The position numbers and the translations under genes are program-made. DNA of 62,381 nt, counting the filler, from Nitrospirae bacterium MYbin3 (GTDB taxonomy: Bacteria; Nitrospirota; Thermodesulfovibrionia; Thermodesulfovibrionales; Dissulfurispiraceae): assembly GCA_002753335.1 (NCBI GenBank). It is 3 parts of 3 records of this genome, joined end to end, with 100 filler letters (N's around TTAATTAATTAA, not from the genome) between each part and the next. Parts side by side here need not be neighbours in the genome. Positions count along the whole stretch, not along the records: positions 1 to 24,225 come from PEAD01000035.1; 2 more parts are not named here. One strand, given 5' to 3'. The notes beneath the pieces are model-generated. The model searched no databases. It was given only the letters and a program-made list of their open reading frames with translations, and had not been told where the DNA came from. This document shows, one piece after another, positions 2,460-57,088 of the stretch (position 1 is its first letter; the number at the start of each line of letters is the position of its first letter).

Positions 2460-4415
2460 TTATAACTTTACCTCAAACTCTATTTCTTTTTCGCCGAGCA
2501 GGAATCTCTTTCTGAGTGCTTTCACCTTAACGATATCGCCACTTTTTTTGTAGAAAAGATGCAGCTTTATATCTTCTATTTTTGACACAGCGTTTCCGTC
2601 AAGTGAGGTTATTTTATCTCCGACTTTTATACCAGCTTTCTCGGACACGCTGTTTTCGGGAAAAGCGAGAACTTTTATTCCGGCCTCTTTATCGCTGAGC
2701 AAGGCCATAAGCCTAGGCGATGAAATGCCGTCCATCGGTCTTCGCAGCACAATATAGTCAGCAGCATCCTTTTCTATGCTGCCTTCATTCATGATTATAG
2801 CGTAGTCGTATCCGTTTCTCCTGAATGTCCGTTTGGGTATGCCAGAGCCGTATTCAAAATGCCCCCCGCCTGCTATAACAACCATCTGGCCGCTACTCTG
2901 AAAATCAGGGTTCTTGCGGAAGTATTCGTCTATAGACATAGACATAGTTTCATCCCATAAAATCTGTGCCTGATAAAAGAAATCAAAGCTGCGGCTTTTC
3001 GAGTAGCCATGCTTGTCGAAAATATCCTTAAGCCTTTCCCTATAGTCGTTGTCCGAAAAATCGAGCTGTTCGGGTATTAATTTGCGCTCTTCATCACTCA
3101 ACGAATCCATGCCGGTCTTGGCTGTTTTTTCGGTAATCTCGCGTGTAATATTTAGCGCAACAACCGGTATCTTTTCCGCTCTCGCAAAATCGAGTATCGG
3201 TTTATAAAGATTGTAGTCAAGCCCCCATTTCTTAAAATATTCGGATTTTTTCAGAAATTCTTTTTCGTCTATCTCTCCCGAGATGTATTCGTCGAGCGCC
3301 TTTTGGTAAGGCCTCTGAAACATCTCCATCCCGATCGCTATTTTTTTATTCTTGCTGAATAGTCCCTCTATTATCTTCAACTGTATGTCATGATGAGAAA
3401 AGCGGTCATGCGCCTCGCCGACATACAAAATCTTTTTCTTCGAAATCTTTTCTATAAGGTCATTTAAGGTTTTAAGTGCGGATGTTTCGATAACCACAGG
3501 CTCTTCCTTTAAATCCATAACTATTCCCCTTTCATTTTCATTGACGCTCTTTGATATATTTCTACCGTTTTCAAATGCAAGCAAAGAGTATTGACCGTAA
3601 GTAAATAGATTTTTTAGAGCAGCTTCTGCTTCCTCTTTATTCTTTGCGTCAATTATGGCAACCGCTCCCTTTGGATTCCAAGGATTTTCCTTTACTGCAA
3701 CGCTAAAGCCTGCATAGGGCATATTAACTTTTGCGTACAATCTCGATATGAGAGGGTTGTCTTTGCCGAGTATTACCACTGACGATGCCTTTATATCCGA
3801 ATCTTTTATCGCCGCCGATTCGTTGTCTTGCGCGCCTTTTTTCTTAAAAGCTTCGATAATACTTCCATAAGCCTCTTTGTTCGATACTGGCAGTGCTGTA
3901 AGAATCTTTTTTGCTCCTATAACGCGCGAAAGCACAGCAGGTATTTCTGAATCAGCCAGTTTTCTGAACAACTTATAATCCTCATCAAGCACAATTTTGT
4001 GGGGCTCAGTATCAAACAGTCTTATGATTTTAACGCTCGAGTTATCGTTTTTGTAAGATACGTTTATTTTTTCTCCACGCAGATAAAAAGCCACCGGTAT
4101 ATCAAGGTCATAAACCTTACCGTGTTGAGCAAGCTGAAAGCTGACTTCAAACTTTCTTCCTGCACGCCTGACATTTAGCTCCTCTATTGATATCTCTGGC
4201 AGATTGTTTGTACTGTTGTCATTAATTTCAAAATTCACCAGCATCTGCTTTCTCTCTGTCCAGTCTAATTTTTTTTCATTATCGGTGAACTGTTTGATTC
4301 TTTCTTTCTTGACTGCAACATTCTGAGAGTTCGATTTTTCATCGTCGGCATAAAGCCCCGAAGCAGAAACAATAGATACATATAATGACAATAATAAAAA
4401 CCAGATCCAGCGCAT
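2460..4415 (-). CDS. exported ChaN-family (EreA/ChaN-like) protein with C-terminal PDZ domain
   Basis: Signal peptide; YVGEAHD, IGMEMFQRPYQ, QILWDETM, AGGGHFEYGSGIP motifs; PDZ SVSEKAGIKVGDKITSLDG. Confidence 0.8.
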   Translation of the reverse strand: MRWIWFLLLSLYVSIVSASGLYADDEKSNSQNVAVKKERIKQFTDNEKKLDWTERKQMLVNFEINDNSTNNLPEISIEELNVRRAGRKFEVSFQLAQHGKVYDLDIPVAFYLRGEKINVSYKNDNSSVKIIRLFDTEPHKIVLDEDYKLFRKLADSEIPAVLSRVIGAKKILTALPVSNKEAYGSIIEAFKKKGAQDNESAAIKDSDIKASSVVILGKDNPLISRLYAKVNMPYAGFSVAVKENPWNPKGAVAIIDAKNKEEAEAALKNLFTYGQYSLLAFENGRNISKSVNENERGIVMDLKEEPVVIETSALKTLNDLIEKISKKKILYVGEAHDRFSHHDIQLKIIEGLFSKNKKIAIGMEMFQRPYQKALDEYISGEIDEKEFLKKSEYFKKWGLDYNLYKPILDFARAEKIPVVALNITREITEKTAKTGMDSLSDEERKLIPEQLDFSDNDYRERLKDIFDKHGYSKSRSFDFFYQAQILWDETMSMSIDEYFRKNPDFQSSGQMVVIAGGGHFEYGSGIPKRTFRRNGYDYAIIMNEGSIEKDAADYIVLRRPMDGISSPRLMALLSDKEAGIKVLAFPENSVSEKAGIKVGDKITSLDGNAVSKIEDIKLHLFYKKSGDIVKVKALRKRFLLGEKEIEFEVKL

Positions 4416-11265: not shown

Positions 11266-12126
11266 CTACATAAGCAGCGATAAGGCAGTAAACACCAGTA
11301 CCGTAATGCTTATGTATCCGTTCATGTTGAAGAAGGCCATATTGAGTTTGCTAAGGTCGTCGGGCTTTACGAGCGAATGTTCGTAAACAACGAGACCAAT
11401 CACAACTAAAATCCCAAGCCAATATAAAAAATTCAGGTTGAATATTATGCCTGTAAGAACAAACAATATGAGAGTAATGCCGTGAAAGATCCTTGCAAAA
11501 GAAAGAGATTTTTTAATTCCAAATTGCTGAGGAATGGAATGAAGACCGTGCCTCTTATCGAATTCAACATCCTGGAGCGCGTAAAGAACATCGAATCCTG
11601 CCAGCCAAAAAACCACAGCAAGCGCGAGCGGCAGTATTTCAAAATCAAAACTTCCTCTTACCGCAATCCAAGCGCCAAGAGGAGCCGCTGATATAGAAAT
11701 CCCAAGAACAAAGTGCGACAACCATGTAAACCTTTTAGTGTATGAATACAAAAAAAGCACTGATATTGCAACCGGCGAAAGCATTAGGCATAACTCATTA
11801 AGACTGTATGCGGCATATACCATCAATGCAAATGAAACAAATGTAAAAATCGCGGCATCCCTTACGCTTATCTTACCTGCAGGTATTTCTCTGTTTTTAG
11901 TTCTAGGATTATTAGCGTCAATCCGTCTGTCTATAATCCTGTTAAGCCCCATAGCCCCAGAACGCGCTCCTACCATAGCAACCGCAATCCAGAAAACAGT
12001 ATTCCAAGCAGGCAATCCATTTGCTGCCAGCAGCGCACCTGTAAACGCAAACGGCAAAGCAAATACCGAGTGTGAAAACTTAATCATTCCGAGATAAAGA
12101 GAGAACTTATTAAAAAGAGACTGCAT
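11266..12126 (-). CDS. mqnP: UbiA-family prenyltransferase (MqnP-like, futalosine pathway)
   Basis: IKFSHSVFALPF, NRIIDRRIDANNPRT, YSYTKR, YALQDVEFD, AFFNMNG; mqnD also present in the window. Confidence 0.8.
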   Translation of the reverse strand: MQSLFNKFSLYLGMIKFSHSVFALPFAFTGALLAANGLPAWNTVFWIAVAMVGARSGAMGLNRIIDRRIDANNPRTKNREIPAGKISVRDAAIFTFVSFALMVYAAYSLNELCLMLSPVAISVLFLYSYTKRFTWLSHFVLGISISAAPLGAWIAVRGSFDFEILPLALAVVFWLAGFDVLYALQDVEFDKRHGLHSIPQQFGIKKSLSFARIFHGITLILFVLTGIIFNLNFLYWLGILVVIGLVVYEHSLVKPDDLSKLNMAFFNMNGYISITVLVFTALSLLM

Positions 12127-12137
12127 GATGGTTGTTT

Positions 12138-13532
12138 TTATTTTCTTAAACTGAAGCGTCCTTTCAGCTTATCAGCATCAGGGCTTATACTCGGACTCTG
12201 TTTTACATTCAGAGCTTTTGCTTCGTTTTCTACTAAAGGTTTTATCTGCTCATAAATCTCTGCTATGGTCTTTTTGCCATCCTTTAGAGCTTTCAGAAAA
12301 TAGTATGTAAAGATGCCATGCCCTTTATCCGGCGCAGACGTGCTTATCTGGGTTCCCTGAGTTGCGGACAATACAGCCATATTACGTGGCATATCCTTGA
12401 TATCAGACAACATAACAAGAGGCCGGGCTCCTTTTGCAAAAACGCTTCTGCCGCCCAACCCAGAAAAGCAGGAATCAATCAAAACAATTATTTCCTGAGA
12501 CTCTAACATGCCCAGTCTTTCATACAGCCTTTTTAACGAATACCCTGTGGTCTCAAGATAGTTGGGATCTCCGTCATATGGCACTATATAAGCTCCGCCT
12601 TTATTTGGCTCCGGTGCGCCGTGGCCCGAAAAATAAACAATCACACGGCTGTCATTCTTGATTTTATTCGGAAGCCAGGCCTCTATTGATTTTTCGATAC
12701 CTGACTTTGTTGCATCCTGATCCGTAATTAATGCAATGTTCTTTTCCTGAAATCCAAGTGCCTTAAGATAGTCTTTAATTATCAGAGCATCATTTTTTGA
12801 ATAGTCCGAACTAGGAAGCCCCTTGTAGGCTTCTATCCCGATTATCACAGCAAGGTCATTGGGTCTGGGCTCAGACTTGAAATCAGGAATTTTATGTATA
12901 TCTATTTCGAATCCAGATGTGTTTTTTGATTGGGGCGTATATGCAGACATATCCCTTACTCTCGCTTTTAAAAACTCCGCCAACTTCATAGATGAACGAA
13001 GCCTGACGCCCAAATTGTCCAAGGCTTCCAATATTAGTTTTTCGGGATTATATCCGGGACGTTCAAGAGCGCCAATACCTAAACCTTTTATCGTATCGAT
13101 TTGTTTATGGTCTAAAGAAAGAATTATCAAAGCAGCATCAATTTGAGCATGAACTTTTTCGGGCATAAGTTCAGTGACATTGTGGATATCAACATTGACA
13201 TATAGATCTGCAATCACAATCATGTCTAATTGCGCCATATTGGCATCCTCTATTTTTTCGAGCCTGACAGCTTTCTTGAAATTGCGGCGGAAAAAATCGG
13301 TAAATAAGGTGTTTATCTTTTCATAATCAAACGAGCCGTATCCTCGCGCATCGTGCAAAAACTGAACTGTTCTTTTTGTGTTTTCCGAAATTACTATGCC
13401 GACTGTCATGTCTTTATAAGCAGGACGCACAATATCCAAGCCAGATAGAGGATCGAGTCGTTCCGGTACGGTCAGAGGGGTTTCGCAGCCCGAAAATAAA
13501 AACAAAAAACTAAACAATATTGATAACTTCAC
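12138..13532 (-). CDS. caspase-family (C14) lipoprotein 1, type B, unknown alpha/beta N-domain
   Basis: Lipobox LFSG-C; AVIIGIEAY, YFSGHG, IDSCFSG, GIFTYYFLKAL; GTG start overlaps the upstream TAG (TAGTG). Confidence 0.88.
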   Translation of the reverse strand: MKLSILFSFLFLFSGCETPLTVPERLDPLSGLDIVRPAYKDMTVGIVISENTKRTVQFLHDARGYGSFDYEKINTLFTDFFRRNFKKAVRLEKIEDANMAQLDMIVIADLYVNVDIHNVTELMPEKVHAQIDAALIILSLDHKQIDTIKGLGIGALERPGYNPEKLILEALDNLGVRLRSSMKLAEFLKARVRDMSAYTPQSKNTSGFEIDIHKIPDFKSEPRPNDLAVIIGIEAYKGLPSSDYSKNDALIIKDYLKALGFQEKNIALITDQDATKSGIEKSIEAWLPNKIKNDSRVIVYFSGHGAPEPNKGGAYIVPYDGDPNYLETTGYSLKRLYERLGMLESQEIIVLIDSCFSGLGGRSVFAKGARPLVMLSDIKDMPRNMAVLSATQGTQISTSAPDKGHGIFTYYFLKALKDGKKTIAEIYEQIKPLVENEAKALNVKQSPSISPDADKLKGRFSLRK

Positions 13533-15886
13533 TAATAGAGTTCCCCGAACTTCTTTTCGTCTATCTTTCCTTCGAGAAAGGCCTCAAGTGTTTTTGATTT
13601 CTTTGAAGACTTTATCTCGTCCATAGCCTTTGAGAGCTGTTCCGCGGTAATGTGCCCCTTCTCAAAAACAACCTTAAGCTTATTTCGGGCTATATCCACA
13701 TCCGCGACCTTCGCTCTTTCCCAGTTGCGGGTTACTGCAAAATCTCCATTGCCCGAAATATGAGGGGTCTGCTCAGCTCCCTTAAATTTTCTTGCGGCCT
13801 TAGGCACATTCTCTTTTATGTAGTCCGCAAGCTCATCCACCTTCACCCATACGTCCTTGCCTGCCTTGCCTCTAAGTCCTTCAAGAAAATAGTGGCTGAA
13901 TATCCCTGACTTCAGTTCTGTTTCATCCTCCCAAGACTGCTGATTCGCTGCAGAAGAGGTGAACATCACCTTTCCTGTTCCTGTGGATTTAAAAAGGTCA
14001 GAGGATGCCATCATGCCCACCAAGGGTTTGCCGCCTTTGGGCACTATTGACTTGCCGCCGCCTGTAAAACAGGCATCGAGCGCCACCAATAGCCCTTTAG
14101 CCTGAGACCCGCTCATCAAATCCCGCAAATACGATATTTTTATGCTTGTATCTTCCATTGTTTCTGCGTCTACAATTGCCGCATCATAAGGCACAAGAAA
14201 GCCGTCAAGGATTTTATCGTCCTTTGTCTTAGGTGCGCCGTGCCCTGAAAAATAGACATAGACATAGCCGTCCCAATTCTTGATTTTTCGCAACGCAGAT
14301 ATCATCTCGCTTCTTGTGGCTTTTTCATTGAGAAGCAGTATTGAGTTTTCTTTTGGAACACCGCCATATTGAGGATTGATCAGAACATCATAAACTCTTT
14401 TTGCATCTTGAGAAGCATACTGAAGGTTGGGAATATCCTGCCTGCCCTTGTAGTCTATTCCTACCACTATCGCATAAGTGTCAGAACGCAAAGGCGGTAG
14501 TTCCCCAGAAGCTGCGGGTTCGGTAACGGAAAAAACTTCATAAGTTTGTTTGAATGCTGTTTCGGATTTGCCTTTTTTCTTTGCAATGATTGGAGCTATA
14601 AGCGGATTCTCTTCCATCAATACATCTGCTGATGCAACGGAAAGAGATATATCCTTTTCTATGCCTTCCCTCAATACTCTTATTTTTGCTCTTGTCCCCG
14701 GCATTAATGTAGCTGCTTTATTAAGAAAATCTTTTATGTCTGATACATGAGCGCCATCTAATTTAAGAATTATATCGCCAACCAATATGCCCGCTCTTGC
14801 AGCAGGTCCGCCTTCCACAATTTTTACCGCTTCCACACCTCTTATCATACCTTTGCTGTAGTCTTTTACATGTATTCCAACCATCCCTTTTCCGCCCCTG
14901 TATTCCCAAGCCTTTTCTTTGTCTCCAAGCAGATAATATATGAGTGATAGATTATAGGCTGGATTGTAATCGGCATTCGTTTCTTTTATTTTTATTATTA
15001 TACTTACGGCAGTTTCACCGTCCCCGAGTCCGAGATAAGCAAAGGCCTTGCCGATAAGTGCATCGTTTAGTAAAATTTTATTGTTCGGTTCAATATGTTC
15101 CAATGCGTTATTAAAATCACTGATAGCTTCGTTAAAACTGCCTTTATAATATTGGGACCAACCCCTCCCGGCTAAAACATTTCCATTTCGAGGATTGACC
15201 TCCAGAGCCCTATTAAAGGCTCTTATTGCCTCGTCATAATTGCTCTTTTTATAGTAAGACCATCCTTCCTGCACAGGCTTTAATTCGACTAACATTTTAA
15301 CAGCCTGATTTGCCTTGTCATGCGTTTTTCTATTCAGAGGTTCGCTTAAACCTACCGACAACTGCTTTGACGCAAGATCTTTAAGTGTGGTTATTGCAGT
15401 ATTTAAATCAGCGCCTTTATCAAGTAAAATTTCAGCGGTTCTAATATGACCGTGAAACGCCGCGTGGCCTAATGCGTTGCCATATCCGGATTTTGCGTTG
15501 GGATTATGTCCTTTTTCTAGAAGTCCGCTTACTATATTGTTGCATCCTGCGCCAGCAGCATAATCCAATAATTGAGGACAATTACCGCCTTTATTTAATG
15601 TATCGTAAGCATTGTCCAGCATTACCTTATATAATTCATCGTTGCATGTACGGTATTTAATATCGAGTGGGAATATAGTTAAATCGTAAGTAGCGGCGAG
15701 TCCGAAAGCAGGCAGTCCATAATCCTGCATTTCGCATGCATTAGAGCCCTTAGCCAGAAGCTCTTTGACGGTATTAAGGTCTCCTCCTTCAACTGCCGAT
15801 CCTAATGGGGTCTTGGCTAGAGTTACACACCCGTTAAGAACAATAAGCACAGCAAATATTAAACCGCACGCCGATATTTTTTTCAT
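13532..15886 (-). CDS. caspase-family lipoprotein 2, type A: ankyrin + TPR + PDZ + C14 + SHOCT-like tail
   Basis: Lipobox VLNG-C; ankyrin ALGHAAFHGHIRTAEILLDKGAD; TPR YDEAIRAFNRALEVNP; PDZ GPAARAGILVGDIILKLDG; YFSGHG / LDACFTG. Confidence 0.9.
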   Translation of the reverse strand: MKKISACGLIFAVLIVLNGCVTLAKTPLGSAVEGGDLNTVKELLAKGSNACEMQDYGLPAFGLAATYDLTIFPLDIKYRTCNDELYKVMLDNAYDTLNKGGNCPQLLDYAAGAGCNNIVSGLLEKGHNPNAKSGYGNALGHAAFHGHIRTAEILLDKGADLNTAITTLKDLASKQLSVGLSEPLNRKTHDKANQAVKMLVELKPVQEGWSYYKKSNYDEAIRAFNRALEVNPRNGNVLAGRGWSQYYKGSFNEAISDFNNALEHIEPNNKILLNDALIGKAFAYLGLGDGETAVSIIIKIKETNADYNPAYNLSLIYYLLGDKEKAWEYRGGKGMVGIHVKDYSKGMIRGVEAVKIVEGGPAARAGILVGDIILKLDGAHVSDIKDFLNKAATLMPGTRAKIRVLREGIEKDISLSVASADVLMEENPLIAPIIAKKKGKSETAFKQTYEVFSVTEPAASGELPPLRSDTYAIVVGIDYKGRQDIPNLQYASQDAKRVYDVLINPQYGGVPKENSILLLNEKATRSEMISALRKIKNWDGYVYVYFSGHGAPKTKDDKILDGFLVPYDAAIVDAETMEDTSIKISYLRDLMSGSQAKGLLVALDACFTGGGKSIVPKGGKPLVGMMASSDLFKSTGTGKVMFTSSAANQQSWEDETELKSGIFSHYFLEGLRGKAGKDVWVKVDELADYIKENVPKAARKFKGAEQTPHISGNGDFAVTRNWERAKVADVDIARNKLKVVFEKGHITAEQLSKAMDEIKSSKKSKTLEAFLEGKIDEKKFGELY

Positions 15887-15914
15887 TGCCGCCTGCCGAA
15901 AACCTTAAAAAACA

Positions 15915-17219
15915 TCATTGCACCAACACTATCTGTTTTTTGTTTTCAGATCCTATTATTTGCGGAGACTGCTCATTGTTGTATGTCTTTCTGGCAATGC
16001 GCTCAACTTGCGGCCTGATGTAGTTGAAAAGCTCTCCTATTTCTATTTTTCCATCGCCATTTGCATCCCCTTCTCCCCTCAGCCCTCTTAGCATAAAATA
16101 CGTGAACAATCCATGTCCTTTTTCGTCATAAGTTGAACTTGTCTGGTCTCCGGAGGCAGCGGAAAGCACAGTAATCTTTTGCGGTATCTGCAAACTCTCC
16201 ATAGACATGACCAGCGGTCTTGCGCCTTTTGCTATAACAGACCTTCCGCCAGCCCCTGAAAAACAGGAATCAAGTGCCACGATAATTTCTTTTGCCTGAA
16301 TTTTCCCGAGCGATTCATAGAGCCTTTTTAAAGAATACCCGGTTTGCTCTATAAATGCAGGGTCGCCGTCGTAGGGCACAAGATAAGCATCACCTGTCTT
16401 TGGATTGGGCGCTCCGTGGCCTGAATAGTAGATAAAAACAGTGCTGTCTTTTTCGGCATTGTTATGCAGCCACTTTTCAAAATACTTTGCGAAATCTACA
16501 TTTGTAGCATGCTCATTTAAAAGCGTTACAATATTTTCTTCAGGATAGCCCATCGCTTTTGTAAGATACTCGGTCATCAGCTTTGCATCTTGAACCGCAA
16601 AATCCACTTTCGGCAGTTTCTGTCGGTAGTTTTCAACACCTATTACAATGGCATAAGAGTTTTTGTTGGGCTTTGCAACTGCAGCAGGAAGCTTGTCAAC
16701 GTCCGATTTGACAATGAGAGATACCTCTTGTGTTGTTTTAGAAACTGGTAGTATAGGCTGACCGGCAATGTCCTGCTTTTTAGCGAACTTCTCAATAAGT
16801 TTAATGGCTGGATTGGCGGAAGCTCTGTCATGCCTGCTTAAACCAACTATTGCAGCATCTATATCTGCACCCTTGTCAATGAGGAGTTTTGCTATATTGG
16901 CATGGCCTAACATAGCGGCAAACTCCAGCGGGGTATATCCGCTTCCATCCCTCGCATTCAGATCAGCGCCCTTTTCAATGAGCAAGGCTACAACATTGGC
17001 ATGGCCGCGACCTGCAGCATAGTTCAAAGGCATTAGTCCACCAACCCCCACTCTAACATTCACATCAGCGCCTTGTTCGATAAGAGTTTTAACGGTATCA
17101 ATGTCACCCGAATAAGCCGCATTAAAAAAAGGATTCGTACTCGCACACCCTGTCATCGCCATGCTTGCAAACAGCACGAAGATTACGCTGGTTAAAGAAA
17201 TAAAATTATGCCTTTTCAT
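15915..17219 (-). CDS. caspase-family lipoprotein 3, type B: ankyrin repeats + C14
   Basis: Start reassigned to MKRHNF (17219); lipobox MTG-C; three ankyrin repeats (GYTPLEFAAMLGHANIAKLLIDKGAD); YYSGHG / LDSCFSG; DANGDGKI loop. Confidence 0.9.
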   Translation of the reverse strand: MKRHNFISLTSVIFVLFASMAMTGCASTNPFFNAAYSGDIDTVKTLIEQGADVNVRVGVGGLMPLNYAAGRGHANVVALLIEKGADLNARDGSGYTPLEFAAMLGHANIAKLLIDKGADIDAAIVGLSRHDRASANPAIKLIEKFAKKQDIAGQPILPVSKTTQEVSLIVKSDVDKLPAAVAKPNKNSYAIVIGVENYRQKLPKVDFAVQDAKLMTEYLTKAMGYPEENIVTLLNEHATNVDFAKYFEKWLHNNAEKDSTVFIYYSGHGAPNPKTGDAYLVPYDGDPAFIEQTGYSLKRLYESLGKIQAKEIIVALDSCFSGAGGRSVIAKGARPLVMSMESLQIPQKITVLSAASGDQTSSTYDEKGHGLFTYFMLRGLRGEGDANGDGKIEIGELFNYIRPQVERIARKTYNNEQSPQIIGSENKKQIVLVQ

Positions 17220-17232
17220 ACTGGTTTCTCTC

Positions 17233-18798
17233 TCAATACAGCTCCCCGAACTTCTTCTCATCTATCTTCCCTTCAAGGTACGCTTCAAGTGTCTTGGACT
17301 TCTTTGAAGACTTCATCTCATCCATCGCCTTGCTGAGCTGTTCAGCAGTTATTGTTCCATTCTCAAACGCATCTTTAAGTTTTGTTCTGCCTATTTCTAT
17401 ATCCATCACTTTAGCCCGATCCCAGTTGCGGGTTACAGAAAAATCTCCGCTGCCGCTGATTTGCGGAGTCTGCTCTACATTCTTTAATCTCCGCGCTGCC
17501 TTAGAAACATTTTCTTTCACATAGTCCGCCAAGTCATTTACCTTGATCCATACTTCCTTGCTAAGCTTTCCCCTCATGCCTTCCATCAGATAATGGCTGA
17601 ATATGCCGCCCTTCAGCTCGCTTTCATCCTCCCAAGACTGCTGGTTCAACGCCGATGATGTCATAACCACCTTACCGGCACCCATTGGCTTAATTAATTC
17701 AGCAGTCGCAAGCATTCCGACCAAAGGTTTGCCTCCTTTAGGAACTATTGATTTTCCTCCTCCGCTAAAACAGGCATCCAAAGCAACCATAACACCCTTT
17801 GCATTCGTGGAGTCCACCAGTTCTTGAAGATACGAAATCTTGATGCTTGAGTCTTCCATAGATTCCGGATCGGTTACTATCGCGTCATAAGGCACAAGAA
17901 AACCGTCAACAAGCTTCTCATCTTTTGACTTTGGGGCGCCATGTCCTGAGTAGTAAATATAAACATATCCGTCCCATGTCTTTATCTTTCTAAGTGCGGC
18001 AGCCATTTCGTTTCTCGTTGCCTTTTCATTAAGAAGCAAAATTGTGTTTTCCTTAGGAACTCCGCCGTACTTCGGGTCAGTAAGTATTCTATGGATTTTT
18101 TTAGCATCTGCTGATGCATACTGAAGAGCGGGTATATCGCGTCTGCCTTTATAGTCAATACCTATCACAACAGCAAAGGTATCGGGTCGAAGCGATTTTG
18201 TGTCAACAGGAGTTGATATTTCTATATCCGGCTCAGAAGGTTTTGTTTCTTGATTGTCAATAATTTGGGGAGCAGGTTGTTCGCGCATTGCCGCTTTGGT
18301 TTTTAATAACTGTTCACGCTCACGTACTGCTTCTTTTTTTGATATAAATTCTCGTTCCCGCCTTGTATCTCTTGATGCAGTGTCAGACAGTCTTCCCCTA
18401 GTGCCGGACAAAGCAGCCTGCTTAATAACATATAAAGCATCAACAAGCCTTTTGGCTTCTTCCATGCGATCCCTTCTAAAATACATGGAATTATGAATCA
18501 CCCTTACATTCTCTTTTATCCCTATATGCATAATGACATTGCCAATCAGCAACTCAGGTTGAGCCTCGCTATACGATACAAATCTTCGGCCTCCTACTGA
18601 ATTAAAACTGAAACCGGCATCCGTAGCATTAATAGCAATATTGTAGTTTGATAGTATGTTCTCTGCAGTTTCAACAGTCATCTGCTTTGTGTTGTATGGG
18701 TCAGGTCTGTGAATTGTTGTTAATTGCTGGACCGCACAGGCAGACAAAATAAACGAAAAAAATATGCTTGCGATGAATAATCTCTTTACTGATATCAT
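17233..18798 (-). CDS. caspase-family lipoprotein 4, type A: unknown N-domain + charged linker + C14 + SHOCT-like tail
   Basis: SD AGGAGG; lipobox ILSA-C; YYSGHG / LDACFSG; ends KIDEKKFGELY. Confidence 0.9.
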   Translation of the reverse strand: MISVKRLFIASIFFSFILSACAVQQLTTIHRPDPYNTKQMTVETAENILSNYNIAINATDAGFSFNSVGGRRFVSYSEAQPELLIGNVIMHIGIKENVRVIHNSMYFRRDRMEEAKRLVDALYVIKQAALSGTRGRLSDTASRDTRREREFISKKEAVREREQLLKTKAAMREQPAPQIIDNQETKPSEPDIEISTPVDTKSLRPDTFAVVIGIDYKGRRDIPALQYASADAKKIHRILTDPKYGGVPKENTILLLNEKATRNEMAAALRKIKTWDGYVYIYYSGHGAPKSKDEKLVDGFLVPYDAIVTDPESMEDSSIKISYLQELVDSTNAKGVMVALDACFSGGGKSIVPKGGKPLVGMLATAELIKPMGAGKVVMTSSALNQQSWEDESELKGGIFSHYLMEGMRGKLSKEVWIKVNDLADYVKENVSKAARRLKNVEQTPQISGSGDFSVTRNWDRAKVMDIEIGRTKLKDAFENGTITAEQLSKAMDEMKSSKKSKTLEAYLEGKIDEKKFGELY

Positions 18799-18812
18799 TT
18801 TAAGCCTCCTAG

Positions 18813-20717
18813 TTAATACAGCTCCCCGAACTTCTTTTCGTCTATCTTGCCTTCAAGGTAAGCTTCAAGTGTTTTGGACTTCTTTGAAGACTTCAGCTCA
18901 TCCATTGCTTTACTGAGCTGTTCTGCCGTTATAATTCCTTTTTCAAAAGAATCTTTAAGCTTGGCGCGGGCTATCTCCACATCCATCACTTTAGCGCGTT
19001 CCCAGTTTCTTGTAACCGCAAAGTCACCCCTGCCTGCAATCTGTGGATTTTGGTCTGCTCCTTTCAGCTTCTTCGCAGCTTTAGGCACATTCTCTTTTAT
19101 ATAGTCAGCAAGCTCCTCCACCTTAACCCATGCTTCCTTGCCGCCTCTGCCTTTCAATCCTTCGATAAGATAATGGCTGAATATACCGCTCTTTAATTCA
19201 CTCTCATCTTCCCATGACTGCTGATTCGTGGCCGAAGATGTGACGATCACCTTGCCGGCTCCCTTAGGCTTCATCAACTCTGGACTAACTATCATTCCGA
19301 CAAGAGGCTTGCCGCCTTTTGGGACTATCGATTTACCGCCTCCGCTAAAGCATGAATCCAGCGCGATAAACACGCCCTTTGCACTGGATGTATCCACAAG
19401 CTCCTGAAGGTAAGAAACTTTTATCGCGGTTTCATCCAAAGCTTCAGGGTCGGTTATAACAACATCGCTCGGTATTAAATACGCATCCACAAACTTATCG
19501 CCCTTTGTGTTTGGAGCGCCGTGGCCCGAATAATAGACATACACAAAACCGTCCCAGCTCTTTATCTTCCTAAGTGCGGTCACCATTTCGTTTCTTGTAG
19601 CCTTCTCATTTAAAAGAAGGATTGTATTTTCTTTTGGCACACCGCCGTAACGCGGGTCGGTAAGGATATCGTAAACCTTTGCCGCGTCAGCCGACGCATA
19701 GTTTAAATTCGGAATCTCCTGCCTTCCTTTGTAATCTATGCCTACAACAACAGCATATGTATCGGAACGCAACGGCGGCAGCTTTATATCTGACGGCGGA
19801 GTGTAAGACGGCTCCTCTTTTTTAGGCGTTCTGGCTAAACCTCCCTGAACAGCTCCAAGCTTTACGGTTAAAAAAATCGAGGCTCTGTCTCTGGATATAA
19901 GCAGTAAAGCATTCTCTTCGGCCCTCGAAGCCGCAACAGCATTCTGCAAATCTTTTGGCAGAGCTATTTTAGTCCTGTTGAACTCCAAGATTATATCGCC
20001 ACGCCTTATTCCTGCCTTATCTGCCGCAGAACTTTTTACAACATCAGTAACCAACGCGCCTTTGGCCTCACTAAGACCGAACTGTCCAGCAAGTTCGGCG
20101 GTAACTGGCTGTATCTGAACTCCAAGCGATGCTCCGCCGCCGGCCTGCGCATCATAGTCGTATCCGGCAGTCTGAATACCGCCGCCAAGAGCCACAGCAA
20201 TACCTTTGCCTGCCTTGTAATCAGCCATCATCTGATCACGAACATCAGAAAGCAGCTGGCTCAGGCTTGCATGGAACGATTCTCCACCATATCCTCTTCT
20301 CATCCCAGAGGCGGTATAATTACCCCCTACATCCTTGTTGTTTTTATCCTTGATCGAAATAACCGTCTTGTGTTCGGTTTTTGATTCTGAATGCTCAATC
20401 CTCATAAGCATGTCATACGAACCCATATTGACCCGCGAAAATAAACGCGACTTTGTCATATCCTCCACTATCCGCTCGCACAAGGCAATATTGTAGTTTA
20501 CTATGGATTCTTCGGTATTCATCCATTCCAGCCATAACTGCCTATACTCAGGCGTAAAGCTGCACTCGGCTTCGATACGAACTCCGGTGTCGATGTAATC
20601 ACGCGCAGTGACTGTATTCCATATCATTCCGCTCTTGTATTCCTGAGAAGAAATAGTTATGCAACCGGATAAAAAGCCAACCATAAAAATAATTAAAATA
20701 ATTCTAGCAGCACGCAT
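18813..20717 (-). CDS. caspase-family lipoprotein 5, type A: unknown N-domain + HtrA-like PDZ + C14 + SHOCT-like tail
   Basis: Start reassigned to MRAARII (20717, SD GAGGTG); lipobox FLSG-C; PDZ LGVQIQPVTAELAGQFGL..GALVTDV..SAADKAGIRRGDII; YYSGHG / LDSCFSG. Confidence 0.9.
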   Translation of the reverse strand: MRAARIILIIFMVGFLSGCITISSQEYKSGMIWNTVTARDYIDTGVRIEAECSFTPEYRQLWLEWMNTEESIVNYNIALCERIVEDMTKSRLFSRVNMGSYDMLMRIEHSESKTEHKTVISIKDKNNKDVGGNYTASGMRRGYGGESFHASLSQLLSDVRDQMMADYKAGKGIAVALGGGIQTAGYDYDAQAGGGASLGVQIQPVTAELAGQFGLSEAKGALVTDVVKSSAADKAGIRRGDIILEFNRTKIALPKDLQNAVAASRAEENALLLISRDRASIFLTVKLGAVQGGLARTPKKEEPSYTPPSDIKLPPLRSDTYAVVVGIDYKGRQEIPNLNYASADAAKVYDILTDPRYGGVPKENTILLLNEKATRNEMVTALRKIKSWDGFVYVYYSGHGAPNTKGDKFVDAYLIPSDVVITDPEALDETAIKVSYLQELVDTSSAKGVFIALDSCFSGGGKSIVPKGGKPLVGMIVSPELMKPKGAGKVIVTSSATNQQSWEDESELKSGIFSHYLIEGLKGRGGKEAWVKVEELADYIKENVPKAAKKLKGADQNPQIAGRGDFAVTRNWERAKVMDVEIARAKLKDSFEKGIITAEQLSKAMDELKSSKKSKTLEAYLEGKIDEKKFGELY

Positions 20718-20752
20718 CTTTTTCACCTCTTTTAGTTTGTAGCTATCAATCA

Positions 20753-22393
20753 TTAATACAGTTCCCCGAATTTCTTTTCATCTATCTTGCCTTCGAGGTA
20801 GGCTTCAAATGTCTTGGATTTTTTGGGAGACTTCATCTCGTCCATCGCCTTGCTGAGCTGTTCCGCAGTTATAATTCCACGCTCAAATGCATCTTTGAGC
20901 TTTCCTCTTGCTATTTCTACATCCATAACTTTGGCGCGCTCCCAATTCCTTGATACAGAAAAGTCACCTTTGCCGAGCATCTGTGGTGTCTGGTCAATTC
21001 CCTTCAGTCTTCTCGCAGCCTTAGGCACATTGTCAGATACGTAGTCCGCAAGTTCATCAGCCTTTACCCATACGTTTTTGCCTGCCTTGCCCCTCATGCC
21101 TTCGAGCAGATAGTGGCTGAATATTCCGCCTTTCAGTTCGCTTTCATCTTCCCATGACTGCTGATTTACCGCAGATGACGTGATAACAAGTCTACCCTCG
21201 CCTTTAGGCTTCATTAAATCGGATGCCACCATCATTCCCACCAAAGGCTTGCCGCCTTTGGGAACTATCGATTTGCCGCCGCCCGAAAAACATGCGTCAA
21301 GAGCAACCATAACGCCTTTTGCATTTGAAGCATCAACAAGCTCTTGCAGATAAGAAACCTTTATGGCGGTTTCTTCCATCGCTTCAGGGTCGGTTACAAC
21401 AACATCGTGAGGCACTAAAAATGCGTCCGTAAATTTATCGCCCTTTGTCTTAGGCGCTCCGTGCCCTGAATAATAGACATACACAAATCCATCCCATGTT
21501 TTGATCCTTCTCAATGCACCGACTATCTCATTTCTTGTGGCCTTCTCATTCAAAAGCAGTACGGCATTTTCCTTTGGTACACCGCCGTACCTTGGGTCTG
21601 TCAGAGTGTCATAAACCTTTTGTGCATCCAACGAAGCGAAGCCCAAAGTAGGTATCTCCTGCCTGCCCTTGTAATCTATGCCTATGACAACAGCGAATGC
21701 ATCGCGGCGTGTCGGCGGAAGCCTATCTGTCTGAACAGGAGCGGGTTCCCTGAAAGCAACTCTTTCTGGAGATTCCTGCTTTCTGGCATATTTCTGCAAT
21801 TCAGGCCATCTGGTAAGGTCTATCGCCCATTCTTTTAAAAGAGTTGCGATAGACACAGACATTCTTCTGCCGAATTCCTGAGTAAATGCGTCCATACCAA
21901 AAACCCGCTGCATATGAAAATCGGACCGTTGAGAATCGCGCGGAGCCCTCCATATTTCCCTCCCCCCTACATCTATGAGCCGCATATTGCCTTTGACAAC
22001 ATAGTATTCGCTTGGAGAAATAGGACAGGAACCTTTTCTGCCGATACTGCTCATGGTTGCCTCAATAACAGCGTCGTAGCCTGCGGGTGGCGGCATGTTT
22101 CTTATAAGCGAAACCTTGTCAAACACCTGAGCAAATGTATCAACAGCCGTTTCTTCAAAAATAACTCCAAAAGGCGTAGGCTCGACATGAACAGATATGC
22201 AGGGCCCTGACAGAACCTCAGAAGTCATAAGACTCCTTGTGGACTCAGGAACAAGCAAGGCCACATTCATCTGTGTTTTCTGCGCAACAGGAATGATAGG
22301 GACTTCCTTTTTTAAAGTCGGACTTATAGAGCAGGCATTAAGAAAAAGAATTGATAAAAAGAAGAATATTTTAATGCCATTGAGACTTTTCAT
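20753..22393 (-). CDS. caspase-family lipoprotein 6, type A: unknown alpha/beta N-domain + C14 + SHOCT-like tail
   Basis: SD GGGAGG; lipobox FLNA-C; YYSGHG / LDACFSG; ends KIDEKKFGELY. Confidence 0.9.
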   Translation of the reverse strand: MKSLNGIKIFFFLSILFLNACSISPTLKKEVPIIPVAQKTQMNVALLVPESTRSLMTSEVLSGPCISVHVEPTPFGVIFEETAVDTFAQVFDKVSLIRNMPPPAGYDAVIEATMSSIGRKGSCPISPSEYYVVKGNMRLIDVGGREIWRAPRDSQRSDFHMQRVFGMDAFTQEFGRRMSVSIATLLKEWAIDLTRWPELQKYARKQESPERVAFREPAPVQTDRLPPTRRDAFAVVIGIDYKGRQEIPTLGFASLDAQKVYDTLTDPRYGGVPKENAVLLLNEKATRNEIVGALRRIKTWDGFVYVYYSGHGAPKTKGDKFTDAFLVPHDVVVTDPEAMEETAIKVSYLQELVDASNAKGVMVALDACFSGGGKSIVPKGGKPLVGMMVASDLMKPKGEGRLVITSSAVNQQSWEDESELKGGIFSHYLLEGMRGKAGKNVWVKADELADYVSDNVPKAARRLKGIDQTPQMLGKGDFSVSRNWERAKVMDVEIARGKLKDAFERGIITAEQLSKAMDEMKSPKKSKTFEAYLEGKIDEKKFGELY

Positions 22394-22561: not shown

Positions 22562-22933
22562 ATGTATGAGTTAAGCATAGAAACGAGTTTTGCGTCGGCA
22601 CATCAGCTGAGAGGTTACAAGGGCAAGTGTGAAAATATTCATGGCCACAACTGGCGGGTTCAGTTATCAGTAACAGCCGCCAAATTAAACGAGATTGACA
22701 TAGCCATAGATTTTCATGACTTAAAGCGAATGGCGAACGAAGTTGTAGAACAGCTTGACCATAAAATGCTTAACGAAATTTTTCCTTTCACCGAAATTAA
22801 TCCTTCCTCAGAGAATATAGCAAAATGGATATTTGAATCGATGGGCAAAAAACTGCCTGCCAATAGTGTAAAGATGTCTAGCGTGACGGTCTGGGAATCG
22901 GACACCGCATCAGCAACCTACTACGAAGATTAA
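22562..22933 (+). CDS. queD: 6-carboxy-5,6,7,8-tetrahydropterin synthase
   Basis: FASAH, CENIHGHNW, LDHKMLN, NPSSENIA, WES; SD GGAGG. Confidence 0.95.
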   Translation: MYELSIETSFASAHQLRGYKGKCENIHGHNWRVQLSVTAAKLNEIDIAIDFHDLKRMANEVVEQLDHKMLNEIFPFTEINPSSENIAKWIFESMGKKLPANSVKMSSVTVWESDTASATYYED

Positions 22934-24225: not shown

Positions 24226-24325
24226 NNNNNNNNNNNNNNNNNNNNNNNNNNNNNNNNNNNNNNNNNNNNTTAATTAATTAANNNNNNNNNNNNNNNNNNN
24301 NNNNNNNNNNNNNNNNNNNNNNNNN
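24226..24325. other. artificial contig spacer
   Basis: 44 N + TTAATTAATTAA (stops in all six frames) + 44 N. Confidence 0.97.
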
Positions 24326-45833: not shown

Positions 45834-45909
45834 TCCCGGGTAGCTCAGCCGGCAGAGCAGGTGGCTGTTAACCACCCTGTCGGGGGTTCGAATCCCTCCT
45901 CGGGAGCCA
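45834..45909 (+). tRNA. tRNA-Asn (GTT)
   Basis: Cloverleaf: acceptor TCCCGGG/CTCGGGA, D arm GCTC/GAGC, anticodon arm GGTGG-CTGTTAA-CCACC, T loop TTCGAAT, encoded CCA; 76 nt. Confidence 0.97.
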
Positions 45910-47517
45910 GGCGTTACTCTCAGCGAAACCTTTTGCTGGGTTAAGTTTTGATGGATCTATGGGCGGAAGTTCCCATAGATCCATTTTGATTTTTCCGCTA
46001 AGTTTGTTATGTTTTGTGTCTTTTCTTACATTCGCACTATAAGATATCTTTTTAATCAAGAGGTGCATTAAATCATATTTTTCATCCTGGGTAAGTTTGT
46101 CATAAACATCCTCAAACGTTTTGAAATTTTCTTTAATAATATCGGCGCTAACAATTTTATTTTCTATGCTGTTAATCGCAAAACCCACACTATTTATCTC
46201 ATTTTTAAGTTGTTCAGACTGTGTTTCTAAATCATCGATCTCTTTCATAATATAGTTTGTGCGACTATTCTTCTTCCCTTCTCCTCCAAGCACAGAAAGA
46301 AGATTTTTGGCTTTTTTATCCACCTGCGCCAGATTATCGGTTAACATTTTCTTTTTTACGTATAAATTTCTTACTTTTCCTTTATGTTCTTTTGTCGCAT
46401 TATCAATAACACCTGAAACTATGCGCGGATCTTTTGCCAAAAACTTCAATTCATCAACAACAAGAGCTTCAATCTCACGCGCATTAACGCTCCCGATTTC
46501 GCATTGTCTCTTGCTTGCATCGTTATCCACAGTACACCTGTAATAGCAATACTTTTTCTCTTTAGATATGGAAAAACTTGGCGTCATGGCAGAGTTGCAA
46601 TTTTTGCAATAAAGAAGACCTCTCAATAAAAACTGATTGTCATCCTGTCTGTATCCTGTTTTTGTCATATTGTTAACAAAGAGCATTGACTTGACGGAAT
46701 CGAAAACCTCCTCGCTGATAATTGCTGAATGCTTTCCTGGATAAGTAGTATCTTTATGTCTTATTTTGCCGATGTAAATAGGATCGCTTAACAGCCTGCT
46801 AAGGTTAGTCTTGTTGAATTTGTCGCCTCCTAGCTCTCTGCCTGCCCTAGTGGTCCACTGTTTCATGCGATAACCTTTGTTATTTAATGCTATTGCGGTT
46901 TTGCTAAGAGAACCCTTTTTTATATATGTCTCAAATATTTCCTGGGCTATAGGAACTTCTGCTTTATTAATGATAAGACATTTGTTCTCATAGTCAATAT
47001 CATATCCAAGACGAGGATAGCCACCGTTAAAAAATCCTTGGCTCGCCCGGTGGGTCATTATATCTGTAGTTCTCTCTGATGTTTGTTCCCTTTCCATTTG
47101 TGCAAATATCAAAACAATCCGGATTACAGCCCTTCCTATAGCTGTAGATGTATCAAAATTTTCCTGCAAGGATATTAGGTCAATTTCTTTTTTCTCAAAA
47201 GATTTAAACATATGTTCAAAGTCAATAATGGATCGGGAAAGTCTATCGATCTTTTTTACGATAACTGTGTTTATGTTGCCTTTTATTATATCGGCCAGCA
47301 TTCTCTGGAACTCCGGCCTGTTAGTGTCTTTGCCAGAAAACCCTTCTTCCCGATAGATGCTGAAGTTAGTCCATTTTTTGTAAGTACAATAACTTTTCAA
47401 CTTTTCGATTTGTTCGTCGAGGGAGTCCCCATCTGTTGCTTGAGCCCCAGTCGAAACCCTGACATATAAAGCACATTTTCTTTCTTTATCTTCGCGTTCT
47501 TCCATCTTTGTTTCCAT
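45868..47517 (-). CDS. large serine recombinase (resolvase + recombinase + Zn-ribbon/coiled coil)
   Basis: YVRVST catalytic Ser, SGKDTNRPEFQRM, DRLSRS, ERT, GYD, CKNC...YYRC. Confidence 0.93.
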   Translation of the reverse strand: METKMEEREDKERKCALYVRVSTGAQATDGDSLDEQIEKLKSYCTYKKWTNFSIYREEGFSGKDTNRPEFQRMLADIIKGNINTVIVKKIDRLSRSIIDFEHMFKSFEKKEIDLISLQENFDTSTAIGRAVIRIVLIFAQMEREQTSERTTDIMTHRASQGFFNGGYPRLGYDIDYENKCLIINKAEVPIAQEIFETYIKKGSLSKTAIALNNKGYRMKQWTTRAGRELGGDKFNKTNLSRLLSDPIYIGKIRHKDTTYPGKHSAIISEEVFDSVKSMLFVNNMTKTGYRQDDNQFLLRGLLYCKNCNSAMTPSFSISKEKKYCYYRCTVDNDASKRQCEIGSVNAREIEALVVDELKFLAKDPRIVSGVIDNATKEHKGKVRNLYVKKKMLTDNLAQVDKKAKNLLSVLGGEGKKNSRTNYIMKEIDDLETQSEQLKNEINSVGFAINSIENKIVSADIIKENFKTFEDVYDKLTQDEKYDLMHLLIKKISYSANVRKDTKHNKLSGKIKMDLWELPPIDPSKLNPAKGFAESNAWLPRRDSNPRQGG

Positions 47518-47939: not shown

Positions 47940-48039
47940 NNNNNNNNNNNNNNNNNNNNNNNNNNNNNNNNNNNNNNNNNNNNTTAATTAATTAANNNNN
48001 NNNNNNNNNNNNNNNNNNNNNNNNNNNNNNNNNNNNNNN
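47940..48039. other. artificial contig spacer
   Basis: 44 N + TTAATTAATTAA + 44 N. Confidence 0.97.
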
Positions 48040-55849: not shown

Positions 55850-57088
55850 CTAATGTTTTGCTGCGGCTTTTTCTGTCCTTAATTTTGCTGCTTCGTCTTT
55901 GATCTTCTGGAGCGTCTCTTTCATAGGCGCCCATCCGTACCAATGCATATAGTCCGGATTCATATGGAACGCGCCCTGGAATGTACGCATCCTGTATTCG
56001 AGGAACATACGATAGAGATCCTGTTCTAAAGAGCTTTTTGCCTCGTAAAACTGAAGCAGGTCTGGCGCAAAGCTCCAGCTTGCCGGTTTCTTAAGCACGC
56101 CGTCATTATAAAGACCCTGCACCACCCTTATAGCCTCGGCAAATATTTTATCCACATCTTTAACAACCATATCGCCTTCATCAAGCTGTTTCTTTGCATA
56201 TGAAGCGCCATGGCATGTGGAGCAAACCTTGGTCATCTTGTCACGCTCTTTCTGGAACTCTTCCTTAGAAAGTCTTGCCACCTTGCCTGCTTTGACCAGC
56301 TCAAGTCTTGCGGTGGGCTGTCCTTTGTCGTCAAGAACGCCGAGCGCCTTAAGGATAGTGACGCGGTCGTTCATCCAGTCTTTATCGTCTTCAGGAAGTC
56401 TTAAAGCTAAAAAGCCCCAAGAGGTTATAACATTATGGTCACCGCCGTTCATGTGGCAGGTCTGGCAGGTGGGAGCCCTCTTGCTGTCTTTTCCTTCGAT
56501 CTGCCATATCGTGCCGTGCTTTGATGTGGAGTACATCTCCCACTGCGGATGGTCAAAGCCCATGTGGCAGGTCTGGCAGGCCCTCGGATCAAGAGCCTCG
56601 CTCTTTTTGAACGAATGCCTTGTATGGCAGGCGTCGCATTGTGCATGGCCGTAGCGCATTTCTGCCTTTTCTTTGGCCGATTTTTCGCCTATCTTATGGC
56701 AGGCTGAACATCCTTTATAACCCTCACCCGTCACAGCCTTGGGCTGGTGTCCCATCATCGGCATTGACGATGATGCTATCCAAGCAAGATTGTGTTTTCC
56801 AGCCTTGAACTGGTCCACCTGATTTTTGTGGCATCCTGCACAGGTTTCAGCGGTGGGCATCTTTGCAAGTTTGTAATCATCTTTCGTCTTGTGGTCCGAG
56901 CCGTGGCATGAAGAACAATCCACGCCGGCCTTCGACATTTTGCCGTCCAGGTGCTGTTTGACAACTCCGGGTGTAACCTTCTCATGGCAGTTTACACAAG
57001 CGCTTTTCTGCGTTTTTTTTGCGGCGAAAGCAACCGTACTCATAAGCAATGCAATAACTATTACTAACGCAAACTTAAAAACTTTCAT
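55850..57088 (-). CDS. periplasmic octaheme cytochrome c, HAO-related family
   Basis: Signal peptide; eight CxxCH (CVNCH, CSSCH, CAGCH, CSACH, CDACH, CQTCH x2, CSTCH); CHTRHSF, HPQWEMY..SKHG, GAFHMNPDY.HWYG. Confidence 0.88.
   Translation of the reverse strand: MKVFKFALVIVIALLMSTVAFAAKKTQKSACVNCHEKVTPGVVKQHLDGKMSKAGVDCSSCHGSDHKTKDDYKLAKMPTAETCAGCHKNQVDQFKAGKHNLAWIASSSMPMMGHQPKAVTGEGYKGCSACHKIGEKSAKEKAEMRYGHAQCDACHTRHSFKKSEALDPRACQTCHMGFDHPQWEMYSTSKHGTIWQIEGKDSKRAPTCQTCHMNGGDHNVITSWGFLALRLPEDDKDWMNDRVTILKALGVLDDKGQPTARLELVKAGKVARLSKEEFQKERDKMTKVCSTCHGASYAKKQLDEGDMVVKDVDKIFAEAIRVVQGLYNDGVLKKPASWSFAPDLLQFYEAKSSLEQDLYRMFLEYRMRTFQGAFHMNPDYMHWYGWAPMKETLQKIKDEAAKLRTEKAAAKH

Follow-up and report, generated by a model that had tools for sequence, protein, structure and literature searches.

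A tandem array of six predicted caspase-like lipoproteins in a Nitrospirota genome and its association with a FlgP-like/DUF4384 partner

We analysed a 62,381-nucleotide (nt) stretch of DNA (the window) from Nitrospirae bacterium MYbin3 (assembly GCA_002753335.1; the source genome, G000). It contains a tandem array of six genes coding for caspase-family (C14) proteases that are predicted to be exported and lipid-anchored. The genes are numbered from g1 at the 12138 end to g6 at the 22393 end (Table 1). All six open reading frames (ORFs) are open throughout and co-oriented on the minus strand, in agreement with an earlier sequence-only reading of the window. The ORFs of g3 (15915–17261) and g5 (18813–20753) have likely starts at 17219 and 20717; once these are used, the spacing ranges from 1-nt overlaps to 35 nt, and the gap sizes of that reading (a 1-nt overlap to about 35 nt) hold. 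Because the genes lie on a single contig and non-overlapping ones have no exact repeat longer than 26 nt in common, misassembly is unlikely and the array is not an assembly echo. Positions 24226–24325 and 47940–48039 of the window are N-filled gaps and only 1–24225 maps to one contig, so genes past 24225 need not truly neighbour the array.

Every protein of the array passes the Pfam cut-off for Peptidase_C14 (PF00656, E-values from 1.5e-19 to 7.8e-12) and keeps the His-Cys dyad, both of which had been anticipated. The protease half, previously described as constant, falls instead into two subtypes: type A (g2, g4, g5 and g6), with about 70–75% mutual identity, and type B (g1 and g3), with 47% mutual identity and about 30–36% identity to type A. 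In the structural model of g6 (predicted local distance difference test score, pLDDT, 89.8) the C14 domain is nearest to that of MALT1 (3v4o: Z 21.7, root-mean-square deviation (rmsd) 3.7, 215 positions aligned), tied with plant metacaspases (Z 21.6 and 21.3) and followed by GSU0716 (Z 20.3). The alignment spans the whole MALT1 caspase domain, its p10-like half included, and among structural matches for the catalytic domain MALT1 ranks first or ties for first (Z 21.7–22.0). A sequence search of solved structures gave no match at E ≤ 1 for one type A domain and 24 matches for a type B profile. The acidic Asp pair of the S1 pocket (equivalent to TbMC2 Asp95 and Asp211), the first member of which aligns with the Asp of the metacaspase ‘CIND’ motif, shows no variation across 113 type B rows and occurs in each of the six proteins. 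In metacaspases the S1 pocket is acidic and formed by both of these residues, according to the accessible part of PMC6426788. Since both are retained, the six proteases are predicted to be specific for Arg and Lys.

Lipoboxes were called by a rule of our own (a lipobox following a hydrophobic segment) rather than by SignalP. A lipobox Cys was found in all six proteins, followed at position +2 by E, V, A, A, I and S, which bears out the proposal of a lipoprotein-type signal without Asp at +2. The +2 sorting rule comes from E. coli and may not hold in this phylum. Lgt and LolA are present in the genome, which contains 12 full-length C14 genes; all 12 products begin with a signal-like segment. 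In the family at large, we considered 136 core members, namely the unique complete ones in the fetched loci (four duplicate loci and truncated or weak matches were excluded): our rule assigns a lipobox to 100, some other hydrophobic N-terminus to 27 and neither feature to 9. The same rule fires on 50 of the 1355 ORFs of at least 300 amino acids (aa) in this genome, and 384 of them have hydrophobic starts; since the latter are so common, only the lipobox class discriminates the family from the background. We therefore predict, from these signals, that the array proteins are lipid-anchored in the envelope, outside the cytoplasm. As judged by eye, a signal peptide similar to that of g3 precedes at least four different N-modules (L097:10586-12037, L073:757-2169, L052:7969-9834 and L069:3022-3723), which suggests exchange between a conserved leader and the conserved caspase.

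A profile scan found the ankyrin, TPR and PDZ assignments of the sequence-only reading to be correct. Its claim that the N-terminal halves all differ did not stand, as ankyrin repeats occur in two genes, PDZ domains in two, and g1 and g6 probably share one fold. The modelled N-domain of g6 has the DUF330-PqiC/PelC/CsgG/LptE fold, with Z 13.2 to 2iqi (rmsd 3.8, 163 positions aligned) and further matches to PelC (Z 10.9) and CsgG (Z 10.7) within a range of 13.2–10; Atlas leads agree. An iterated hidden Markov model search relates the g1 and g6 N-domains at E 9e-17, and hhalign gives only E 0.0013 with a probability of 18.6. For the g4 N-domain, structure comparison provides only a weak lead towards a PH-like fold (template-modelling score 0.53 to a bPH_6 cluster, below the naming bar; Atlas feature scores below 0.9). 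The g5 N-domain model is unreliable (pLDDT below 50), structure comparison listed no fold for it, and its profile does not match the g6 N-domain family.

The four type A genes end in a 69-aa tail, all-helical in models, that had been overlooked. This tail is a separable module, because it also ends (E 1e-19) a caspase-free lipoprotein, L067:8127-8969, which has a g6-like N-domain and stands directly upstream of a caspase-partner pair. The tail was considered as a SHOCT domain (PF09851) and rejected, the resemblance being sub-threshold (14.2 bits against a cut-off of 27, E 0.037) and seen in one of the two tails tried. Over the last 34 codons, array copies use identical codons at 118 of 183 identical residues, compared with 580 of 1198 in the rest of the gene; orthologues do so at 98 of 157 and 768 of 1293. 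We regard this as a modest sign of 3′-end exchange among array copies.

A scan of GTDB genomes detected at least 543 relatives, the nearest of them in Nitrospirota; 74 loci were kept, and these represent Nitrospirota, deltaproteobacterial lineages, Elusimicrobia, Deferribacterales and others. At E ≤ 1e-30 the family comprises 5036 representatives, not all of which need be exported. Among full-length members the Cys motif is kept in 136 of 136 and the His motif in 131. N-domains of 132 members form 48 clusters, of which ankyrin is the largest (44). A scan covering 77 of the best 150 representatives showed N-modules that include TPR, PDZ, WD40, PEGA, DUF2846, cytochrome c7, trypsin and a SecDF P1 head. 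Some fusions are elaborate. An S41/CtpA-type protease is joined to a type A caspase in G019:C33 (around 74523-76880; S41-type as read from motifs) and to type B caspases in L076:7163-9403, L093:283-2481 and L097:8276-10531, and four representatives (P0067, P0073, P0088 and P0135) are exported multi-WD40 proteins of 2000–2650 aa with this caspase domain and tail at the C-terminus. At L029:4609-5841 a secreted serpin, a possible inhibitor, lies between two exported WD40-caspase genes and beside a CHAT gene. Within the order, core caspases (E ≤ 1e-40) occur in 26 of 201 genomes. Split or remnant caspase genes are found elsewhere in G000 (C52:60629-60940, C5:48915-49496 and C57:24828-25052).

The composition of the array varies between relatives, as had been expected. 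In a genome of the same genus, G001, one locus reads mqnP-g2-g3-PIN-ankyrin/type B-new type A-CARDB/type B-g4-bioB and another queD-g6-broken C14-PemK-g5. In a third strain (run X1) mqnP is joined directly to g2, and g5-g6-queD are kept together; g1 is absent between g2 and mqnP in both relatives. One contig of run X1 carries g4 with 30 nt of a type A tail on its upstream side, just below the bridging bar. The new type A gene of G001 is a mosaic: in its caspase region the first 240 nt are 84–86% identical to g2 at the nucleotide level, and what follows is 84–88% identical to g6. Modules are therefore swapped by crossovers that fall within the caspase gene. Such intragenic recombination produces new front ends, as do the gain, loss and transfer of genes. 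In a quick tree built from 132 caspase domains, the ankyrin label has to change 23 times, and starred branches force at least 6 of these changes. Toxin-antitoxin genes are inserted among array members in G001, G009 and G019, and PIN, PemK and HEPN-nucleotidyltransferase modules lie between relatives' caspase genes at L021:10707-11108, L023:12108-12452, L025:15004-15728 and L030:4088-4716. An integron-like array was weighed for this reason and rejected, given gaps of at most 35 nt and no intergenic repeat found.

Ratios of nonsynonymous to synonymous substitution rates (dN/dS), all single-pair estimates, are 0.018–0.06 for the caspase domain and 0.03 (g6), 0.04 (g5), 0.12 (g4), 0.07–0.34 (g2) and 0.37 (g3) for the N-modules. 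Seven flanking genes give 0.03–0.10 (queD is saturated), so that in three of five orthologue pairs the N-modules, at 0.03–0.12, are at the level of their housekeeping neighbours. On these estimates selection is purifying throughout, with dN/dS well below 1 in every module measured. Synonymous divergence (dS) between g3 and its G001 orthologue is 0.16–0.17, compared with 0.8–1.4 for flanking genes, and because of this low value a recent transfer of g3 is suggested.

Clustering of 1097 neighbour ORFs of 95 caspase loci revealed one dominant family, a secreted protein of about 270 aa, hereafter the partner. It is co-oriented with a caspase gene at a distance of at most 1 kb in 45 of the 95 loci, mostly directly downstream; a 46th locus of the cluster has only a longer FlgT_N protein. 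The C-terminus of the partner is DUF4384 and the N-domain is FlgP-like: it matches 9hmf_C (E 5e-4), 9yfg and 9yec in an alignment that runs through the hairpin insert with no gap, and gives E 0.047 against FlgT_N. The identity of 9hmf_C as FlgP was deduced from the accessible text of PMC12222027, and those of 9yec and 9yfg from chain counts in that of PMC13521929. The former ties the hairpin insert to ring formation; the latter shows rings of FlgP and of FlgO beneath the outer membrane. A fused DUF4384 is carried by cyanobacterial orthocaspases (PMC7475262, in its accessible part). Intact partner genes (E ≤ 1e-100) were detected in 19 of the 201 genomes of the order, always as a single close copy, and core caspases are present in every one of these 19. 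Three genomes that lack core caspases have split or partial partner matches, and G075, with a split caspase, has no partner match. Mean column identity of the partner is 67% across phyla, and it is on record in the cultured species Dissulfurispira thermophila (P0153) and Thermodesulfovibrio yellowstonii (P0253); its named homologues point to Thermodesulfovibrionales. Because there is one partner for as many as ten caspase matches in a genome, and their front ends are unrelated, its binding site would be the shared catalytic domain.

The caspases are also linked to an envelope gene cluster of FlgT_N, CsgG, FlgO, SLH, GNA1162-like, transglutaminase and MlaDEF genes. Its marker gene occurs in 44 of the 201 genomes, including all 19 with an intact partner and 23 of the 26 with core caspases. 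In G000 the cluster genes are dispersed over several contigs; in one of these places (C34:32985-34915) lolA immediately precedes the gene for one of the cluster's CsgG-domain lipoproteins. Across the 95 loci, the genes that recur near the caspases include none of flagellar type. The envelope location proposed from sequence is in line with prediction; the partner and the cluster link are what that proposal had missed.

The array is flanked by an mqnP-like and a queD-like gene (Table 1). The suggestion that mqnP-queD is a conserved array site did not hold among relatives: as a fixed insertion site it was rejected, the two genes being about 100 kb apart in G009 and on separate contigs in G002, G007 and G019, with queD not found in G017. 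No foreign-island signal was seen at the array (GC content 0.41–0.46, same as flanks), and a promoter and terminator scan was at chance level (20 vs 23.4 and 13 vs 10.2, respectively). Elsewhere in the window we noted a secreted ChaN (Tiki-superfamily)-PDZ protein, a further exported PDZ fusion (2460–4415), and, beyond a gap and far from the array, a large serine recombinase (45868–47517), a low-GC multi-TPR protein (53141–55519) and a multihaem cytochrome (55850–57088).

Table 1. Genes of the array, flanking genes, the type A tail and the partner gene (window positions unless a contig or locus is given)
Feature	Position	Strand	Description
g1	12138..13532	-	464 aa; lipobox C16; N-domain probably shares the g6 fold; type B C14, H304/C355
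g2	13532..15886	-	784 aa; lipobox C20; ankyrin, TPR and PDZ; type A C14, H549/C606; tail
g3	15915..17219	-	lipobox; ankyrin repeats; type B C14, H282/C333; without tail
g4	17233..18798	-	521 aa; lipobox C21; N-domain of ~115 aa; charged linker; type A C14, H286/C343; tail
g5	18813..20717	-	lipobox; N-domain of ~160 aa; HtrA-type PDZ; type A C14, H411/C468; tail
g6	20753..22393	-	546 aa; lipobox C21; DUF330-PqiC/PelC/CsgG/LptE-like N-domain; type A C14, H311/C368; 69-aa tail
69-codon helical tail	20753..20962, 18813-19022, 17233-17442, 13532-13741	-	ends type A genes g6, g5, g4 and g2
mqnP-like UbiA prenyltransferase	11266..12126	-	housekeeping neighbour, 11 nt downstream of g1; outside the system
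queD-like PTPS gene	22562..22933	+	divergent flank, outside the system
Partner gene of G000	G000:C61:37621-38442 = L132:2622-3443	-	outside the window

We tentatively favour, at somewhat less than an even chance, the reading that the array encodes predicted lipid-anchored, Arg/Lys-cutting, caspase-like proteases that are likely partner-regulated and likely act as optional additions to an envelope structure of the FlgT/CsgG/SLH type. Starting from intact dyads, S1 Asp pairs and lipoboxes in a genome with Lgt and LolA, the proteins would be exported, lipidated and transferred to the outer membrane. Each N-module (CsgG/PqiC-like, PDZ, ankyrin or TPR) may then position or cluster its protease at a distinct site, or on a distinct substrate, in the envelope. 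The single-copy partner would, as the genetics suggest, bind the caspase domain common to all copies, probably via DUF4384, which we presume to have an immunoglobulin (Ig)-like fold. Such control would resemble that exerted by Ig3 on MALT1, acting in trans, and could be either activation or restraint; the FlgP-like domain would tie the partner into a ring or lattice. Front ends are renewed by the recombination and gene turnover described above, and the outcome may be limited proteolysis of envelope proteins (maturation, remodelling or quality control) rather than cell suicide. We arrive at a trans-regulated envelope protease because the partner would act on a shared domain whose best match, MALT1, is a dimerising and Ig-controlled enzyme. 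A more specific version, in which a FlgP-like ring or lattice displays DUF4384 and docks lipid-anchored MALT1-like caspases with interchangeable front modules for apoptosome-style induced-proximity proteolysis outside the cytoplasm, we consider unlikely.

Several observations weigh against the favoured reading. The signal peptide of the partner has no Cys and no lipobox, unlike that of FlgP. In G000 the partner is not beside the array and stands alone on contig C61 (in G001 it is 12.5 kb from the array), and it was not seen in 50 of the 95 loci, many of which are short contigs. A partner-caspase fusion was not found among the longer proteins, a weak test, and seven genomes with caspases have no close partner match (two have a divergent one). 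The 19 partner genomes fall into five families; such kin genomes are not independent, so the co-occurrence counts are not phylogenetically independent and nominal P values overstate them. The cluster is physically adjacent in only 6–8 of the 95 caspase loci, and 21 of the 44 marker genomes have no core caspases, which implies that the cluster can do without the caspases and that beyond this order they may serve other functions. Finally, the TPR/PDZ part of g2 and the ankyrin part of g3 evolve faster than other modules (dN/dS 0.28–0.37), as sensors might.

The last point bears on envelope surveillance, in which variable N-modules would sense proteins of phages, predators or epibionts and trigger the protease; this had been the leading proposal of the sequence-only reading. 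The modular N-termini and predicted envelope location stand, and the patchy spread, quick repertoire turnover among G000, G001 and the X1 strain, the apparent recent transfer of g3, the frequency of ankyrin, TPR and WD40 modules and the toxin-antitoxin genes inside arrays are what surveillance would lead one to expect. The surveillance role itself is weakened by dN/dS far under 1 in each measured module, by ordinary or housekeeping N-domains (S41, trypsin, SecDF P1 head, cytochrome c7), by the failure to link a membrane-spanning or cytoplasmic output, and by a thin defence context. In agreement with the earlier statement, a profile scan of flanking genes found no adjacent gene of the transposase, STAND, gasdermin or CRISPR kind. 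PADLOC matched 9 of the 141 nearest neighbour ORFs checked (out of 199 selected, some of them shadow frames), all to generic domains; no TIR, gasdermin, STAND, Cas/CRISPR or Thoeris model was among the matches, nor was any TIR, gasdermin, STAND or CRISPR family among the recurrent neighbour clusters of the 95 loci. We give surveillance a low probability; the second option of the earlier reading, envelope protein processing, is favoured by the partner and the cluster link.

Alternatively, the caspases could be effectors delivered from the surface or by vesicles, with variable targeting modules, and the downstream partner an inhibitor protecting the producer. The layout of one or more caspase genes followed directly by one secreted gene fits this, a single-copy partner would be enough for a constant enzyme, and the partner decays where caspases are missing. 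We nevertheless find it distinctly improbable, since the partner shows high conservation and a link to a structural envelope cluster, the FlgP-like domain that it carries is more suggestive of a scaffold, and lipid anchors speak against delivery. Still poorer is the case for the caspase domain as an auto-processing or transpeptidase tag that releases envelope passengers or links them to an acceptor, like clan CD transamidases and ligases. Whole enzymes do occur as passengers (S41 in G019; trypsin-PDZ), stand-alone versions of N-modules adjoin caspase genes, and legumain ligase and the glycosylphosphatidylinositol (GPI) transamidase share the caspase-domain fold (Z 15.5–17.9); the linkers of the caspase genes, however, have no conserved cleavage motif in common, most members are already predicted to be lipid-anchored, and the nearest folds are MALT1 and metacaspases, which makes a tag very unlikely. 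An incidental pile-up of redundant duplicates, gathered by paralogue recombination and sharing generic proteolysis alone, would account for the union of two blocks that are separate in G001 and for the split and remnant copies elsewhere in G000, and is similarly hard to credit in view of strong purifying selection on every orthologous copy and strict co-occurrence with the partner.

The favoured reading, a partner-regulated envelope protease, can be set against known systems. Type IV Thoeris likewise employs a caspase-fold protease, an Arg-specific enzyme in the accessible part of its description; it was rejected, as the flanking genes include no TIR and the 141 neighbour ORFs gave no Thoeris model. 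Gasdermin-associated caspases and Craspase were rejected with no gasdermin or type III CRISPR effector adjacent, and the EACC1-associated caspase (NF047832) with scores of 65–98 bits where at least 140 are needed; the PADLOC ‘caspase’ model matches only about 130–160 of 453 positions in the array proteins. Thoeris, gasdermin-associated proteases and Craspase also differ in that the predicted site of action of the array is outside the cytoplasm. Among bacterial caspase-like enzymes, the characterised ones that we found work in the cytoplasm as effectors of death or defence, and for most prokaryotic homologues of caspases no function is known. Here a large family has a defined two-part core, protease plus partner, and therefore the role of non-suicidal bacterial caspases becomes directly testable.

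The partner N-domain resembles FlgP of the Vibrio H-ring (FlgT/FlgP/FlgO) and of the Campylobacter basal disk, and the linked cluster genes carry FlgT_N, FlgO and CsgG; curli CsgG, PelC and PqiC have the fold of the g6 N-domain. None of these structures includes a protease, and the array partner, which has no lipobox, adds DUF4384. Prokaryotic metacaspases or orthocaspases (C14B; MaOC1 and Geobacter GSU0716, 3BIJ) likewise have PF00656, a His-Cys dyad, an acidic S1 pair and many accessory domains. The survey PMC3501461, in its accessible part, names Nitrospirae as the richest in metacaspases and some N-terminal helices as probable signal peptides; unlike the metacaspases surveyed there, those of the array bear lipoboxes, stand in tandem and have a dedicated FlgP-like/DUF4384 partner. 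The claim that this is not a described system was upheld, as we found no published account of exported caspase lipoprotein arrays or of the partner, although the supplements of PMC3501461 and subscription papers may list such architectures. Judged by its sequences, the array is an undescribed variant, predicted to be exported, of the C14B peptidase family. A domain scan matched no Ig domain in the six proteins, which sets them apart from paracaspases. MALT1, a paracaspase, dimerises via its protease domain under control of the adjoining Ig domain (accessible part of PMC4713714); it is eukaryotic and cytosolic and carries Ig3 in cis, whereas the array would, by analogy, be controlled by DUF4384 in trans. 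An Ig-like cofactor acting in trans, if true, would bear on how paracaspase regulation arose.

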